From: an uncultured Gammaproteobacteria bacterium
GTDB taxonomy: Bacteria > Patescibacteriota > Patescibacteriia > Magasanikbacterales > GWA2-37-8
Length of the DNA stretch: 62,385 bases
Assembly (NCBI GenBank): GCA_964482695.1
Contig: CAYZYP010000004.1
Span: forward strand, 1 to 62,385
Direction: 5' to 3'
The notes beneath the pieces were generated by a model. It did not search any database, was not told the origin of the DNA, and saw nothing but the letters and a program-made list of their open reading frames with translations. A program made the position numbers and the translations under genes. Shown in pieces: positions 49,557-61,697 of this stretch. Positions within the stretch are counted from its first letter, which is position 1, and the number at the start of each line of letters is the position of its first letter.

Positions 49557-50141
49557 TTATATCTTAATATATTTCCAAGTGATGATATCATTAGATCTGA
49601 TAATATAACTAGATATACCTACTTTGGCAGATTCATCATTAATATAGTAAACCCAGTACTTATTTTGTTGGCCATTTTTAATACCATTAATTTCTTCTAT
49701 CAAAAATCCTAAACTTCCATAATCTTTGCTTTTAAAATCAAGGCTAGCGTTTTGTTGTAACAACAGCATGGCGTTATAGGCTGTTGTGGTAGCTGTAAGC
49801 TGGAGATTATAAGTTGTCTCTGCTATTTTTATTTTAGAATTCAAGCAATTTTGTTGGCAATTAACAAATATTTTATTTTCATCTTTGTTTTTTGCCGCTG
49901 GCTTTTTGTTGGTTGGTGAAGACGATGTTATTGTTTGTTGTTTGATTTCAGCGGTATTTTTGGTTGGTATTTTTTGAGTTGTAGTAGTAGAGTTATTGGT
50001 ATTATTTGGTTCGTTGGTTTTGTATTCTGTGTTTAAAGGGGATGTAGTAGCCAAAGCATACCAGCCACTAATAGCTGTTGTTAATAACAGGGTTATAAAT
50101 AAAATTAAATGATATTTGTGTTTTTTAGCAAATTCGCGCAT
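49557..50141 (-). CDS. DUF4430-type (transcobalamin/intrinsic-factor beta-domain-like) secreted protein
   Basis: N-terminal TM/signal. The C-terminal 'GSLGFLIEEINGIKNGQQNKYWVYYINDESAKVGISSYIIRSNDIITWKY' matches the DUF4430 pattern. Confidence 0.7.
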   Translation of the reverse strand: MREFAKKHKYHLILFITLLLTTAISGWYALATTSPLNTEYKTNEPNNTNNSTTTTQKIPTKNTAEIKQQTITSSSPTNKKPAAKNKDENKIFVNCQQNCLNSKIKIAETTYNLQLTATTTAYNAMLLLQQNASLDFKSKDYGSLGFLIEEINGIKNGQQNKYWVYYINDESAKVGISSYIIRSNDIITWKYIKI

Positions 50142-50184: not shown

Positions 50185-50225
50185 AAAGATAAAAAATAAT
50201 CAGCATTTCCTGCTCGGAATACACA

Positions 50226-50319
50226 TATATTTGAAGACCGGACTTATTCTCCCGCCAAAGGCGGGGGACTTTACCGTTGCGGCACAGTGGAGGAATTTTA
50301 CCTCACTTCCACAAATATA
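50226..50319 (-). promoter_or_regulatory. cobalamin riboswitch aptamer (compact, class-II-like)
   Basis: Minus strand reads TATATTTG-[GTGGAAGTGAGGTAAAATTCCTCCACTGTGCCGCAACGGTAAAGTCC...AAGTCCGG...]-CAAATATA. GGAA...GGTAAAATTCC...CCACTG...ACGGTAAAGTCC resembles the Cbl core, closed by an 8-bp helix. Confidence 0.6.
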
Positions 50320-50337
50320 CGGATGAATTGTAATTCT

Positions 50338-57703: not shown

Positions 57704-58603
57704 CTAATTTGTAATTTTTGATTTAAACAATTTAGTGCTTAAATACTTTTCTCCTCTATCTGGTATTATAACAACTATATTTCCTTTCTTCAACAATCCG
57801 CCTGTTTGGCTGGCTGCAAAAAGGGCTGCTCCTGAACTCATGCCTACAAAAAGCCCTTCTTCTTTGGCGACTTTTCTGGTCATTTCAAACGCCCCTTCTT
57901 TAGAAATATGGAAGTGTTTATCTATTAAGTTGTTGTTATATATGTCGCCACTGAAATCTTTTTGAGGATTTTGCAGCCCTTGAATTTTGTAGCCAGTAGG
58001 AGGAAAGACCCCAATGATTTTTGTTTGAGGTGAATCCTCTTTAAACCTATTTGCAATTCCAATTATTGTACCGGAAGTGCCGATTCCCGCAATTAAATAA
58101 TCAATGTTAGGAACTTCATGTAGTATCTCTGGGGCAATACCTTGATAGTGAGCTTGAACATTGTCTTGATTATTGAACTGATTAGAAAACCAGTATAAAA
58201 GAGGCGAGCTTTTAACTAATCCCTTTGCTTTGGTGATTGCTCCTTCAGTGCCAAATTTTTTGTCTGTTAGTATTAATTTTGCTCCAAGTGCTCTAAGCAT
58301 AGTTTTACGTTCATCGCTCATGCCTTCTGACATGACAATGTGAACTTCATATCCTTTGTTGGCTCCGATCATTGCAAGGGCAATCCCCATGTTACCACTC
58401 GTGGCTTCAAGAATGATCTTGCCTTGTTTAAGCTCGCCTCTTTTTTCAGCTTGTTCAATCATATATAAAGCCGCTCTATCTTTTATCGAGCCACCTGGAT
58501 TTTGCCCCTCCAGTTTTGCAAATAGGTTTATATTCTTATTGCTTAGAATCTTCTCCAATTTGATCATTGGGGTGTTTCCGATTGTTTGTAATAAATTTTT
58601 CAT
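57704..58603 (-). CDS. cysK: cysteine synthase (PLP-dependent, CysK/CysM family)
   Basis: 299 aa with 'NPGGSIKDRAALYMI' (PLP Lys region), 'ATSGNMGIALA' and 'GIGTSGTIIG'. Confidence 0.9.
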   Translation of the reverse strand: MKNLLQTIGNTPMIKLEKILSNKNINLFAKLEGQNPGGSIKDRAALYMIEQAEKRGELKQGKIILEATSGNMGIALAMIGANKGYEVHIVMSEGMSDERKTMLRALGAKLILTDKKFGTEGAITKAKGLVKSSPLLYWFSNQFNNQDNVQAHYQGIAPEILHEVPNIDYLIAGIGTSGTIIGIANRFKEDSPQTKIIGVFPPTGYKIQGLQNPQKDFSGDIYNNNLIDKHFHISKEGAFEMTRKVAKEEGLFVGMSSGAALFAASQTGGLLKKGNIVVIIPDRGEKYLSTKLFKSKITN

Positions 58604-58627
58604 AATGTTTAAGTTAATTGAATAAAT

Positions 58628-58651
58628 AAAAAACCCTCGGTGTTCCGAGAG
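58628..58651 (-). terminator. attenuator terminator in the cysK leader
   Basis: Minus strand reads CTCTCGG-AACA-CCGAGGG followed by T6, about 25 nt before the cysK ATG. Confidence 0.7.
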
Positions 58652-58680
58652 CCTTCTTTGTCTAAATTCTTATGAATTTA

Positions 58681-58767
58681 CTACAAACACAAACAGGCGG
58701 ATCTCGGAACGATTCCAAGATTGCAACAACAATTATTTACCTGATTGTAATTGTTTATGGACTTCAT
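58681..58767 (-). CDS. Cys-rich leader peptide MKSINNYNQVNNCCCNLGIVPRSACLCL
   Basis: 28 codons with 5 Cys, including TGT-TGT-TGC at 58731-58723. The alternative RNA pairings lie immediately downstream. Confidence 0.6.
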   Translation of the reverse strand: MKSINNYNQVNNCCCNLGIVPRSACLCL

Positions 58768-58773
58768 TTTGTT

Positions 58774-58801
58774 ATCTTAACATAAAGTAAAAAAATTGCA
58801 A
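58774..58801 (-). promoter_or_regulatory. promoter of the cysK leader
   Basis: On the minus strand: TTGCAA (58801-58796), 16-nt spacer ending TGT, TAAGAT (58779-58774). Canonical spacing puts +1 at the A of the leader ATG (58767). Confidence 0.5.
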
Positions 58802-58850
58802 ATTTTAAAATCCCAATTATCTTGTTTAGCTGAAATAGTAAGGGCGGGAA

Positions 58851-58885
58851 TGGTATACGATGTGCGCGCGTATGTGATGTCCCGC
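58851..58885 (-). repeat. intergenic repeat X, copy 3 (diverged)
   Basis: TGGTATACGATGTGCGCGCGTATGTGATGTCCCGC. Confidence 0.4.
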
Positions 58886-58940
58886 GAAGCGGGATATGGG
58901 TGGAGGCTTACTGTTGGGGAAGCCGGAACCAGATACACGC
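58871..58940 (-). repeat. intergenic repeat Z, copy 2
   Basis: ...GTCCCGCGAAGCGGGATATGGGTGGAGG...GGGGAAGCCGGAACCAGATACACGC. It shares the blocks CGCGAAGCG, ATATGGGTG, GGGA(A)GC and GAA(A)CC with copy 1. Confidence 0.45.
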
Positions 58941-59018
58941 TGTTAGCTGTTGTATTTGTTTTTCTTTATTACGACCGCAGTCGGAATTACTCGTAAAAAT
59001 AATTCAATTTTGTTTTTT

Positions 59019-59066
59019 GTCGTTTTCGGCAAAGGGGGGGTTAAGGGGTGAATGCCCCCTGAAGCC
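59019..59066 (-). repeat. intergenic repeat Y, copy 2
   Basis: GTCGTTTTCGGCAAAGGGGGGGTTAAGGGGTGAATGCCCCCTGAAGCC. Confidence 0.55.
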
Positions 59067-59112
59067 GTATTATAGCTTAAAATTCGCGTTTTTAAAGGGT
59101 TTTCCACAATCA

Positions 59113-59141
59113 TTGACAACTTGCGATATGTCGTATATAAT
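59113..59141 (+). promoter_or_regulatory. perfect consensus sigma70 promoter, antisense to the surrounding gene orientation
   Basis: TTGACA (59113-59118), exactly 17 nt, TATAAT (59136-59141). Confidence 0.7.
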
Positions 59142-59147
59142 AAGTTC

Positions 59148-59266
59148 AGAAGATAAGTCCTTAGGGTAAAGCTTCGTGGAGGGCGTTCTCTATCAGGAAC
59201 ATCCCGTTGAAACGAAGATATTCCCAAAAGGCTCTTTTACATGAATCCGCTTTACAGCGGGTTTTT
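59148..59266 (+). ncRNA. orphan small RNA (~115 nt)
   Basis: Bounded by the consensus promoter and the terminator ATCCGCT-TTAC-AGCGGGT plus T5 (59245-59266). The body folds as one long irregular hairpin (CCTT/AAGG, GGG/CCC, CTTCGT/ACGAAG, GGG/CCC, GTTC/GAAC). Confidence 0.55.
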
Positions 59267-59400
59267 GATTTGTATTAATCTAAATCCAATATCTTCAAAT
59301 ATGTGGCTTGAATCAGTTTGATATTCTTTGTAGAAAGTATTGGAAACAAAATCGGATTCTTTTTAAGAGCTGGGGCGATAGCCCTAAAAGGAAAACATGT

Positions 59401-59436
59401 ATTTCGTATAACGTCGCCGATATGCGATGTTTTTGC
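59401..59436 (-). repeat. intergenic repeat X, copy 4
   Basis: ATTTCGTATAACGTCGCCGATATGCGATGTTTTTGC. About 29 positions are shared with copy 1. No gene follows it. Confidence 0.55.
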
Positions 59437-59605
59437 GACCAACGGGAGCAAAAATACGGGAGAGGAAAATAGCGATTCCGTTGAAAATATTATTTATCGC
59501 TATTTTCTGAACCGCATATACCGTGTTGTACGATGTAAATTTTTTGTCGTTTTTTATATTTTCCCGTGTCGCCGTCTCGTTATTGTTAATCGCGAACAAA
59601 ATTTT

Positions 59606-59650
59606 TCCGTTTTGGATTTTGGGCAGAGGGGTCAGGGGTGAATGCCCAAA
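59606..59650 (-). repeat. intergenic repeat Y, copy 3
   Basis: TCCGTTTTGGATTTTGGGCAGAGGGGTCAGGGGTGAATGCCCAAA. Confidence 0.55.
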
Positions 59651-59670
59651 AGACAAAATACTTAATTATT

Positions 59671-60975
59671 TTATGTGGCAAACGCAAATAAGCGTTGTTG
59701 TGCAAAAATTGGTTCACAAACTTCTTCCTCAATAATCTCACCTTCTAACATTTTTATGATTGTATCACCAATATAGTACCCAAGATTTACCGGGACAGCA
59801 TTTCCGATTTGTTTATATTGGTGGCCAATAGAACCGGCAAATTCCCAGTCATCTGGAAATGTTTGAATTCGTGCGTATTCTCGAACAGTAAGAGGTCTCG
59901 TCTCGTCAGGATGACACCGTTCAGTCTGTTTTTGAGCAGGACTGCATGTCAAAGTGAGCGATGGTTCGTTCCATGATAATCGTCGTGCCATGCCTGTTTT
60001 ACCACCGCCCATGTAAAAACTGGCACCCATGTATTCTTTTTGTAAATCTTCCGGCAATTCCCTCCAATATCCGCCAGGCGGGATCATTTTCATTATTTTT
60101 TTCTTTTTTTCTGGATATTCTTGACCTGATGATTTTGGGCACTTGTGCAATGCCTCGCGAAGGGGGACAATATAGTCTTTTTCTTTTGGGAATGAAATTG
60201 GGATATTCAGATCTTTTCTAACGCCAATAATTATGAGGCGTTCCCTTTTTTGTGGGATATCTAAATATTGAGATCGCATTACTTTGTATTTTACATTGTA
60301 CCCAAGTTCTTCTAATACCTCAACCATTGTTTTTAATGTTCGTCCATTATCATGATTAAGTAGTCCTTTTACGTTTTCACCGATTGCTATTTTTGGTCTT
60401 ACTTCTTTTACACATCTCGCAAATTCAAAAAATAGCGTACCGCGTATGTCATCAAACCCCATTTTTTTACCAGCGTATGAAAAAGTTTGGCAGGGAAAAC
60501 CTCCCTGAACAATATCTGCTTGTCCTTCTGTAAATTTAAGATTTCTTACATCTCCTTCGATTACATTCCATTCGGGTTTATTTTTTCTAAGAGTTTCGCA
60601 AGCATGTTTATCATATTCGTTGAGCAAAATATGTTGAATACCAGCATTTTCCATTCCGAGTGCCGTACCGCCCGCACCGGCGAATAGTTCAATTGCAGTA
60701 TAGGAAGATGTTTTCTTGTTTTTTAAAATTTTGAATTTACTTTTTTTATCGCCTTGAGTTTTATTTTGTATTCTTTTTATTTCGTCCAAACTAAATATAC
60801 GGTCATTTCTTTCATTTCGAAAAGATCTGATTAATCCTTTTTTATCCCATCTGCGGATGGTATCTATGGAAAGCCCTAATTGAATAGCGACTTCTCCAGC
60901 AGTAATAAATTTAACATTGTTTAGCATATAATAATGATAGGGGATTAACCTATCATTATTATACCAAATAACCAT
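59671..60975 (-). CDS. DNA (cytosine-5)-methyltransferase with an N-terminal MerR/excisionase-type HTH
   Basis: Motifs 'ELFAGAGG' (I), 'GGFPCQTFS' (IV), 'ENVKGLL' (VI), 'QKRERL' (VIII) and 'GNAVPV' (X). N-terminal 'ITAGEVAIQLGLSIDTIRRWDKKGLI'. An alternative start lies at 60927. Confidence 0.9.
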   Translation of the reverse strand: MVIWYNNDRLIPYHYYMLNNVKFITAGEVAIQLGLSIDTIRRWDKKGLIRSFRNERNDRIFSLDEIKRIQNKTQGDKKSKFKILKNKKTSSYTAIELFAGAGGTALGMENAGIQHILLNEYDKHACETLRKNKPEWNVIEGDVRNLKFTEGQADIVQGGFPCQTFSYAGKKMGFDDIRGTLFFEFARCVKEVRPKIAIGENVKGLLNHDNGRTLKTMVEVLEELGYNVKYKVMRSQYLDIPQKRERLIIIGVRKDLNIPISFPKEKDYIVPLREALHKCPKSSGQEYPEKKKKIMKMIPPGGYWRELPEDLQKEYMGASFYMGGGKTGMARRLSWNEPSLTLTCSPAQKQTERCHPDETRPLTVREYARIQTFPDDWEFAGSIGHQYKQIGNAVPVNLGYYIGDTIIKMLEGEIIEEEVCEPIFAQQRLFAFAT

Positions 60976-60989
60976 TGCATAGGCAAAGG

Positions 60990-61697
60990 TTATTCTGTGG
61001 AAAAGGCCATTTTGAATAATTCGAAGTATTGTAACGCCTCGTTTTTGCTCAATTTAAACTTGTATTCGTCGACTAATATGTGAGATACTGCTTCAAACAA
61101 CTCTTTTAGAGCATGTTTTCGTCCAGTAGCTAATTCATAGAAATTTTTTCCATCAATAACCCTTATATGTTTGTTGGATGGTCGTCTTTTTTTAGTTTTA
61201 TTGTCCGGCGGGACAAAAGGTTTGTCGTATGTTTTTTTGCTCTGTGGGATAACTTCAACAAAATAACCAATATAATCTGTGTATGTTTCAGTTTTAAGTT
61301 TTGATTTTATAGCATCGTATACTTCTACTTTATGGTTACCTTTTGTAGTATTGAATTTATTTTTTACCTCTGCAATAATTTTCATTTCTGAATTCACAAC
61401 ATCTAAACCACCACCTGCGCCTAGATTTGACCAACCAGGGATGGCACCGAGTACTTCTTGGTGAAAATCGCCAATCGCATTTTGCATTGTTTTTTGCGAC
61501 TGCCTAGCCTTTTCTTGTTCAATCCATTCCTTGTAAGTTATGGCATGCGTTACGCCATGAAATAGGGCGGAAAATGGATCAATTACATTTTTATGCAGAT
61601 TGTTATCTGCTTCGTGTTCGGCCGTTTCAATTATTTTGACAACTTTGCCAACGGCGGAGATTAATTGTTTGTTGGTGATAAATTTGAGATATGGCAT
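60990..61697 (-). CDS. type II restriction endonuclease (PD-(D/E)xK; Eco47II-like by memory)
   Basis: 235 aa immediately upstream of the methyltransferase. 'NVIDPFSALF', 'IGDFHQEVLG' and 'LDVVNSEMKIIAEVKNKFNTTKG' (a D...E-x-K pattern). Confidence 0.6.
   Translation of the reverse strand: MPYLKFITNKQLISAVGKVVKIIETAEHEADNNLHKNVIDPFSALFHGVTHAITYKEWIEQEKARQSQKTMQNAIGDFHQEVLGAIPGWSNLGAGGGLDVVNSEMKIIAEVKNKFNTTKGNHKVEVYDAIKSKLKTETYTDYIGYFVEVIPQSKKTYDKPFVPPDNKTKKRRPSNKHIRVIDGKNFYELATGRKHALKELFEAVSHILVDEYKFKLSKNEALQYFELFKMAFSTE

Follow-up and report, generated by a model that had tools for sequence, protein, structure and literature searches.

Ribosome-mediated transcription attenuation is exemplified by the trpL, hisL, leuL, thrL, pheL and ilv leaders of Proteobacteria. 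In these classical attenuators of amino-acid operons, reviewed in PMC1183508, a short open reading frame (ORF) carries tandem codons for the pathway's final product, and four RNA segments form the mutually exclusive helices 1:2, 2:3 and 3:4, the last being a terminator located just 5' of the first structural gene; segment 1 is masked when translation stalls at the regulatory codons, and segment 2 is blocked once the ribosome has reached the stop codon. Here we analyse a short leader of about 140 nt sharing this organization and lying on the minus strand 5' of a cysteine synthase gene (cysK) in contig CAYZYP010000004.1, of which the 62,385 nt considered here are referred to as the window. Judging from sequence conservation and predicted RNA folding, this leader very probably controls cysK as a trp/his/leu-type transcription attenuator, ribosome-mediated and specific for Cys. 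It differs from the classical cases by the amino acid sensed, cysteine, by a predicted leaderless start, with neither 5' untranslated region (UTR) nor Shine-Dalgarno (SD) sequence, by its target, a single gene instead of an operon, and by its host, a Peregrinibacteria-like bacterium of the candidate phyla radiation (CPR) whose genes are almost all without an SD.

Leader peptides with Cys runs but no terminators were predicted in Actinobacteria by Seliverstov et al. 2005 (PMC1262725), and the polycysteine leaderless small ORFs (sORFs) of mycobacteria were shown by Canestrari et al. 2020 to be Cys-responsive translational attenuators constituting a “Cys ribulon” (bioRxiv 10.1101/834739). At the one mycobacterial locus dissected in that work, the stalled ribosome opens a duplex in which the following gene's SD is hidden, and no conserved terminators were detected (bioRxiv 10.1101/834739). 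The cysK leader shares with these sORFs a first-cistron ORF, predicted to be leaderless, with at least two to three consecutive Cys codons upstream of a Cys-metabolism gene, as well as its proposed sensor, the stalling of a ribosome at these codons. Conversely, it possesses an intrinsic terminator and a covarying antiterminator, has no SD, occurs in a different phylum and displays no sequence similarity with the mycobacterial elements.

A Cys-Cys upstream ORF with an intrinsic terminator 5' of cysS in Rhodobacterales, uORFC-8-2, was reported as a prediction only by Brewer et al. 2021 (PMC8632094). Its tandem Cys codons at about positions 14-15, its two stems, the second one being a terminator with a U-run, and the Cys-tRNA-dependent read-through proposed for it all resemble the cysK leader. 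However, its Cys codons are inside the first stem, its host is alphaproteobacterial and no leaderless start was proposed for it; the location of the Cys codons 5' of stem 1 and the identity of the gene, cysK instead of cysS, set the present leader apart. Cys T-boxes follow the same logic, relating tRNA(Cys) charging to cysK, cysS or cysE through a terminator and an antiterminator, but they bind the uncharged tRNA directly and need no translation, whereas the cysK leader has neither T-box sequence nor specifier loop. The T-box model RF00230 gave no match in 58200-59700 at E-values up to 10, and the same model detects weak T-boxes in three other loci presented below. No Rfam 15 family matched the leader either, at gathering thresholds over the whole window or at E-values up to 10 over 58200-59700, the matches there being at chance level: BSnc120 (E = 0.12, essentially covering the terminator) and a leu/phe leader (19 bits, E = 3.9).

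A previous sequence-only reading of this DNA had presented Cys-specific leader-peptide attenuators as rare and had known of none in CPR-like bacteria. The second point agrees with a literature search combining CPR, Patescibacteria or Peregrinibacteria with leader peptide, attenuation, leaderless or cysteine synthase, which returned no description of such an element; the first one has to be tempered, since Cys leader ORFs are established by experiment in mycobacteria and predicted in Rhodobacterales. The mechanism is therefore already known, and the cysK leader joins the leaderless polycysteine ORF of mycobacteria with the terminator logic of Rhodobacterales in a CPR bacterium. It would fill a gap in the catalogue of leader-peptide attenuators, in which Cys attenuators possessing a true terminator have until now existed only as a prediction, 5' of cysS in Rhodobacterales. 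To our knowledge, gene regulation in CPR bacteria is hardly understood, as they are uncultured and few transcription factors can be recognised in them. An attenuator of this type would imply that Peregrinibacteria couple translation to transcription, make use of intrinsic terminators, probably translate leaderless mRNAs with good efficiency and monitor cysteine supply through tRNA charging. Although not mechanistically surprising, it would constitute a rare well-supported CPR element and a compact Cys-responsive part of about 140 nt, which could be tried in heterologous or cell-free systems.

Architecture and conservation of the cysK leader

The ORF, RNA segments, pairings, terminator and promoter listed by the sequence-only reading were all recovered at the positions it gave, by reading of the sequence, RNAfold and a terminator scan (Table 1). 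Cys represents 18% of the leader codons (5/28), against 0.63% in the 54 long ORFs of the window, and this mini-ORF is the only intergenic one with consecutive Cys codons in the 62 kb; the other Cys-run mini-ORFs of the window were rejected, all of them being inside longer ORFs. The core of segment 1, TCTTGGAA (RNA UCUUGGAA; 58720-58713), begins 2 nt past the Cys run and pairs with TTCCGAGA (RNA UUCCGAGA; 58709-58702) over 8 bp, one of them G-U; in RNAfold this helix, hereafter P1 (1:2), reaches 9 bp (58721-58713 with 58709-58701). Segment 2 is also engaged through GTTCCGAGA (RNA GUUCCGAGA; 58710-58702), fully complementary over 9 bp to TCTCGGAAC (RNA UCUCGGAAC; 58650-58642) in segment 3. The terminator reads CUCUCGG-AACA-CCGAGGG followed by U6 (58651-58628), the scan reporting it as 58657-58628. 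Its U-run is 24 nt away from the cysK ATG (58603), and the leader ORF is separated from cysK by 77 nt.

The conservation of this arrangement was evaluated from a CysK protein scan using one genome per GTDB species, which gave 80 loci. The whole module, composed of the promoter, the Cys-cluster ORF, the 1:2 and 2:3 helices, the terminator and cysK, is present at 14/14 genome loci with a CysK identity of 60% or more (L001-L014), so that a Cys-rich mini-ORF is found upstream of each of these cysK orthologues. Several of these loci are labelled Peregrinibacteria or Peribacteria, the labels of the other metagenome-assembled genomes looking unreliable. Five further distinct metagenome loci (L110, L113, L140, L160 and L172) display the same module and, together with the window and the 14 genome loci, form the set of 20 leaders used throughout. 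They originate from a scan of metagenomes with a DNA pattern of the leader core, in which 10 true leader loci were found among the matches listed, representing seven distinct sequences of which these five are new; all true metagenome leaders sit directly 5' of cysK, and about 110 of the 120 matches listed are chance occurrences within unrelated genes. The module is absent from 66/66 more distant loci (about 50% identity; L015-L080), including when these were searched with the covariance model R1. Belonging to Syntrophales/Desulfobacterales and mostly to Deltaproteobacteria, these loci match by the N-terminal part of multidomain fusion proteins of about 770 aa containing 4-10 Cys; as most of them encode such fusions, they are neither cysK orthologues nor stand-alone cysteine synthases and were used as negative controls. 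No second copy of the leader was detected in the window with R1. The genes flanking the leader and cysK vary from locus to locus, indicating that the two form a self-contained module moving as a unit.

Loss of the Cys run in orthologous leaders, which the sequence-only reading had set as an outcome opposing its proposal, does not occur: a Cys cluster is kept in all 20. It reads CCC in 16 of them and CCIC, CC, CIC or CSC in the other four; among the genome loci, L001-L010 carry CCC and the remaining four read MDNCCICLGIVPRRVHPR, ...HCCSVPEIVTGSACSCPV, MKVNVKSCICLESVPGCCFLL and ...TACSCSLEYASRDLCLC. In 20/20 leaders, the distance from the end of the last clustered Cys codon to segment 1 is -1 to 5 nt and the stop codon is 14-23 nt past segment 2; segment 3 begins 19-34 nt past the stop codon. 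The leader frame is open at every locus, the two other frames being mostly closed, its length varies from 26 to 30 codons and its coding indels are multiples of three (L008, L009 and L010). The N-terminal residues of the peptide vary freely between loci.

The pairing of segments 2 and 3 was tested on a MAFFT alignment of the 20 leaders that was not fitted to the structure (A2). In this alignment, 97.8% of the cells of the 2:3 helix are paired and six of its nine pairs have changed on both sides; none of 500 shuffles paired as well and slid controls did not exceed 61%. Loss of this complementarity in orthologous leaders had been set beforehand as an outcome opposing an attenuator, and the complementarity proved to be kept, with compensatory changes. 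P1 and the terminator were tested on another alignment (A4), fitted by the covariance model R1, in which 94.4% and 98.2% of the cells are paired, with four and two pairs changed on both sides, respectively. A hairpin followed by U6-9 is kept as terminator at 20/20 loci. L014 is the strongest single case for the three-helix arrangement, its CUCUUGAG / CUCGAGGG / CUCCUUGGGG / GGGGC-UCG-GCCCC segments being predicted to give the same three mutually exclusive helices from a largely different sequence.

In the window, TTGCAA and TAAGAT are spaced by 16 nt, and aacaaa (6 nt) lies between TAAGAT and the leader ATG (58767). The distance between the -10-like hexamer and the ATG is 6 nt in 14/20 loci and 7-9 nt in five others (L006, L007, L008, L012 and L013); the TG of an extended -10 is found in 15/20, and a TTGCAA, TTGCAT or TTTACA box is present 16-17 nt upstream of the -10 in most of the loci. 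From this conserved geometry, transcription is predicted to start at the A of the AUG or no more than 2-3 nt away, in agreement with the leaderless transcript that had been proposed: the leader mRNA is probably leaderless, L011 and L172 having possibly short 5' UTRs. The absence of an SD was rejected as an argument for the leaderless start, as it is uninformative when 52/55 ORFs of the window have none anyway. Only 3/55 long ORFs of the window have an SD-like motif 20 nt or less from the start, and the upstream regions are A/T-rich; the organism apparently initiates translation without SD pairing.

The regulated gene would be a monocistronic target. It encodes a pyridoxal phosphate-dependent enzyme matching TIGR01136 (cysKM) with 341 bits for a cut-off of 344. 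There is no Cys among the 299 aa of this CysK, nor in 12/14 of the leader-bearing homologues, and the enzyme could thus be made during Cys starvation. The putative attenuator supports the view that this CysK/CysM-like enzyme truly makes cysteine in these organisms.

Table 1. Coordinates of the cysK leader features and of cysK in the window, and of the T-box-like leaders in other loci
Feature	Coordinates	Strand	Remarks
-35-like hexamer TTGCAA	58796..58801	-	leader promoter; read from sequence
Extended -10 TG-T-TAAGAT	58774..58782	-	TAAGAT 58779-58774; TG 58782-58781, one base 5' of the hexamer
Leader peptide ORF MKSINNYNQVNNCCCNLGIVPRSACLCL	58681..58767	-	28 codons + stop (58683-58681); 5 Cys
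Regulatory Cys codons TGT TGT TGC (codons 13-15), putative	58723..58731	-	read from sequence
Segment 1, 5' arm of helix P1 (1:2)	58713..58721	-	RNAfold, -8.5 kcal/mol
Segment 2	58701..58710	-	3' arm of P1 (58709-58701) and 5' arm of antiterminator (58710-58702)
Second Cys codon pair (C25, C27)	58687..58695	-	within the conserved UGUUUGUGUUUGU tract
Segment 3	58642..58650	-	3' arm of antiterminator (2:3), also 5' arm of terminator
Intrinsic terminator (3:4): stem, AACA loop, U6	58628..58657	-	terminator scan
cysK/cysM-type cysteine synthase	57704..58603	-	299 aa; PALP E = 3e-67
T-box-like leader	L208:219-382		RF00230 E = 1e-4
T-box-like leader	L209:340-581		RF00230 E = 0.028
T-box-like leader	L210:350-517		RF00230 E = 6.7e-5

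Proposed attenuation mechanism and alternative explanations

The conservation over 20 loci and the compensatory changes support the ribosome-mediated, Cys-keyed switch between terminator and antiterminator put forward by the sequence-only reading. The leader combines the attributes of the trp/his/leu type: an ORF whose translation is predicted, tandem Cys codons, a terminator, mutually exclusive helices and an appropriate spacing of these elements. When Cys-tRNA(Cys) is scarce, the lead ribosome would stall, its A site occupied by the second or third Cys codon and its footprint extending over segment 1; segment 2 would then pair with segment 3 as soon as the latter is made, the extended antiterminator (about -26 kcal/mol) would prevent the formation of the terminator, and RNA polymerase would read into cysK. 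When Cys is sufficient, the ribosome would reach the stop codon, where it would abut or cover segment 2 and sit inside the would-be 2:3 loop; 1:2 could re-form behind it, 3 would pair with 4 and transcription would end around 58628. More speculatively, P1 and the U-rich tract following it could be a pause site synchronising ribosome and polymerase. A ribosome shields roughly 12-15 nt to each side of its decoding centre. With the conserved spacing, segment 1 is thus predicted to be covered during a stall at the second or third Cys codon, and segment 2 to be touched or partly covered by a ribosome at the stop codon, which would sit where the 2:3 loop has to close.

Folding predictions are consistent with this scheme. 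The minimum free energy of the 167-nt leader is -43.6 kcal/mol, compared with -27.6 +/- 3.6 kcal/mol for dinucleotide shuffles (z = -4.4; 0/200 as good), and the full-leader fold consists of P1 and the terminator. In the window leader, the minimum-free-energy fold becomes the 2:3 antiterminator if the 5' part is removed up to the Cys run or if the RNA is masked to 14 nt past a Cys codon, and P1 and the terminator are restored if the ribosome footprint is masked at the stop codon. A stall simulated by masking the RNA to 14 nt past the last Cys codon of the cluster leads to the antiterminator in 15/20 leaders. An outer helix of ACAAUUACAAUCAGG with CCUGUUUGUGUUUGU also appeared in the window fold; it was set aside and is not claimed, because L113 and other loci do not keep it.

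Several observations weigh against this interpretation. The calculated helix energies in the window are -8.5 kcal/mol for P1, -12 to -15.9 kcal/mol for the terminator and -25.8 kcal/mol for the extended antiterminator (58710-58642): P1 is far weaker than the antiterminator, and the ribosome-free equilibrium fold, before segment 4 is synthesised, is already the antiterminator. P1 being the weakest helix, termination under Cys-replete conditions probably needs a ribosome at the end of the ORF together with kinetic effects, and is unlikely to depend on the stability of P1 alone. In the 5/20 leaders that do not switch upon simulated stalling, the terminator remains the minimum-free-energy fold with segment 1 masked; these leaders do have the 2:3 helix, and their terminator is thermodynamically stronger. 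Moreover, the second Cys pair (C25, C27) is mostly conserved and lies downstream of segment 2, where the model leaves it unexplained and where a stalled ribosome would favour termination. Its loss in L011 and L113 indicates that it is dispensable, and it may reflect a constraint at the RNA level, as an inner part of the antiterminator or as a pause site for example. Finally, most of the 20 leaders are closely related, with an effective number of sequences of 3.6, and the covariation comes mainly from L010-L014.

Three other explanations were weighed against attenuation of transcription. The mini-ORF could encode a functional small Cys-rich peptide, involved in metal or redox binding, RiPP-like (ribosomally synthesised and post-translationally modified peptide) or trans-acting in the manner of peTrpL, the hairpin being merely its terminator and cysK being expressed independently. 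Such a function would fit with the good conservation, among the 15 closest loci, of the peptide's C-terminal half (GLGIVPRSACLCL) and with the retention of most second Cys pairs, but this conserved half coincides with RNA segments 1 and 2, and in L011-L014 the peptide diverges while compensatory changes keep the pairings. The 2:3 covariation would moreover be left without explanation, the 24 nt between the U-run and the cysK AUG offer no room for a recognisable promoter, and the ORF invariably accompanies cysK, irrespective of the genes flanking them. We consider this explanation very improbable, although the peptide may have a role in trans in addition to attenuation. A translational attenuation of the mycobacterial type, in which the stalled ribosome would expose the cysK start and leave termination unaffected, appears just as improbable. 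It has the merit that the closest experimentally proven Cys system works in this way (bioRxiv 10.1101/834739) and that the polycysteine architecture, predicted to be leaderless in the cysK leader, is common to both; nevertheless, the A/U-rich cysK start region (58627-58604) stays single-stranded in every fold, SD sequences are rare in this genome (3/55 ORFs), hence there is nothing to sequester and no hidden ribosome-binding site to be freed, and a canonical hairpin and U6-9 terminator stands in its place at 20/20 loci.

As alternative helices alone are no proof of the involvement of a ribosome, the choice between terminator and antiterminator could also be set by a small ligand, as in riboswitches, or by an RNA-binding protein, the ORF being incidental. 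The conservation at the nucleotide level of the UGUUUGUGUUUGU tract and of the region 5' of the Cys run points in this direction. The conservation of the start codon, the reading frame, the indels in multiples of three and the distance of the Cys cluster in 20/20 leaders, including those of different nucleotide sequence, argues on the contrary for translation, the element of about 140 nt has no room for a separate aptamer and, as mentioned above, no Rfam family was matched even at E-values up to 10, all of which makes a ligand- or protein-set switch extremely unlikely.

Putative cysK leaders in other CPR bacteria and in Archaea

Putative leaders of other kinds were encountered 5' of related cysteine synthase genes. 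Parcubacteria/Moranbacteria-type CPR loci (L208-L210), belonging to a related CysK clade, encode cysK followed by cysS, and are preceded by a divergent T-box-like leader (Table 1). The RF00230 scores of these leaders are all far below the gathering score of 93 bits, a GGUGGAACCACGGGA box and a terminator being present. If their specifier is Cys, cysK would be independently coupled to tRNA(Cys) charging in a second way.

In Woesearchaeota (DPANN), cysK homologues are preceded by mini-ORFs ending with three Cys codons and a stop (CCC-stop) at L022:2213-2257, L201:572-616, L203:4-48 and L204:622-660, and also in L202. The encoded peptides are MRSKLTKKAHSCCC in L022, MRSKLTLNAHSCCC in L201 and L202 and MTSKLTLKSHSCCC in L203; the mini-ORF of L204, MKAILAVRICCC, is unrelated in nucleotide sequence to those of L022, L201 and L203. 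Each mini-ORF starts 22 nt 3' of a TATA-like box, a distance suggesting leaderless archaeal transcripts, and a pairing of the cysK AUG region with sequence just 3' of the mini-ORF stop is predicted for L022, L201 and L203. No CCC-stop mini-ORF was found in three further archaeal-type loci (L205-L207), and an “MRCCN” mini-ORF of L021 was discarded as an artefact, being inside an upstream 509-aa gene. The Woesearchaeota-type cysK of L205 adjoins an archaeal RNase P RNA (L205:167-476, minus strand; RF00373, 138.8 bits), confirming that this contig is archaeal.

On the basis of these sequence features, the archaeal CCC-stop mini-ORFs may be Cys-sensing leader peptides. We know of no amino-acid-sensing leader peptide in Archaea, and these mini-ORFs, if functional, would possibly be the first ones described. 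It is conceivable, if somewhat doubtful, that a habit common to the two domains is at work, whereby the small-genome CPR and DPANN organisms keeping cysK each wire it to tRNA(Cys) charging: through a leaderless polycysteine leader and a terminator in Peregrinibacteria, a T-box in Parcubacteria-type CPR and a leaderless CCC-stop mini-ORF in Woesearchaeota (L022 and L201-L204).

Other features of the window

A gap of about 870 nt between a DNA methylase gene and the cysK leader (58815-59660, minus strand) is non-coding and holds two direct copies of an element of 240-270 nt. Both copies have the 5' motif GGGCATTCACCCCTnAnCCCC (59057-59037 and 59647-59627; 0 expected by chance) and share the 3' motif ACATCrCATA..ACrTT/CGTATAC, and copy B follows a promoter-like site TTTAAA-16-TATAAT (59096-59069). 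The 3' 150 nt of the repeat are conserved just 5' of the leader promoter in L002 (68% identity) and L001. The element matches no Rfam family, and seven weak pairs are all that RNAalifold proposed for four sequences, so that no structure is claimed; it may be a non-coding RNA or a small mobile element.

On the plus strand of the same region (59113-59270), a promoter of perfect consensus, TTGACA-17-TATAAT (59113-59141), lies about 100 nt ahead of an intrinsic terminator (59243-59264). A transcript of about 120 nt is predicted, which folds into a rod-like hairpin and the terminator (-38.4 kcal/mol, z = -3.2), matches no Rfam family and contains a 22-aa ORF with a GTG start (59176-59244). It may correspond to a small RNA.

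Further upstream of the leader, a type II restriction-modification pair on the minus strand (59671-61697) is composed of an Eco47II-family endonuclease (60990-61697) and a C-5 cytosine methyltransferase (59671-60975), the latter carrying an N-terminal MerR-type helix-turn-helix. Elsewhere in the window, an adenosylcobalamin (AdoCbl) riboswitch (RF01482) was detected at 50195-50336 on the minus strand, with 52.4 bits for a gathering score of 50, just 5' of an ORF on the same strand (49557-50141).

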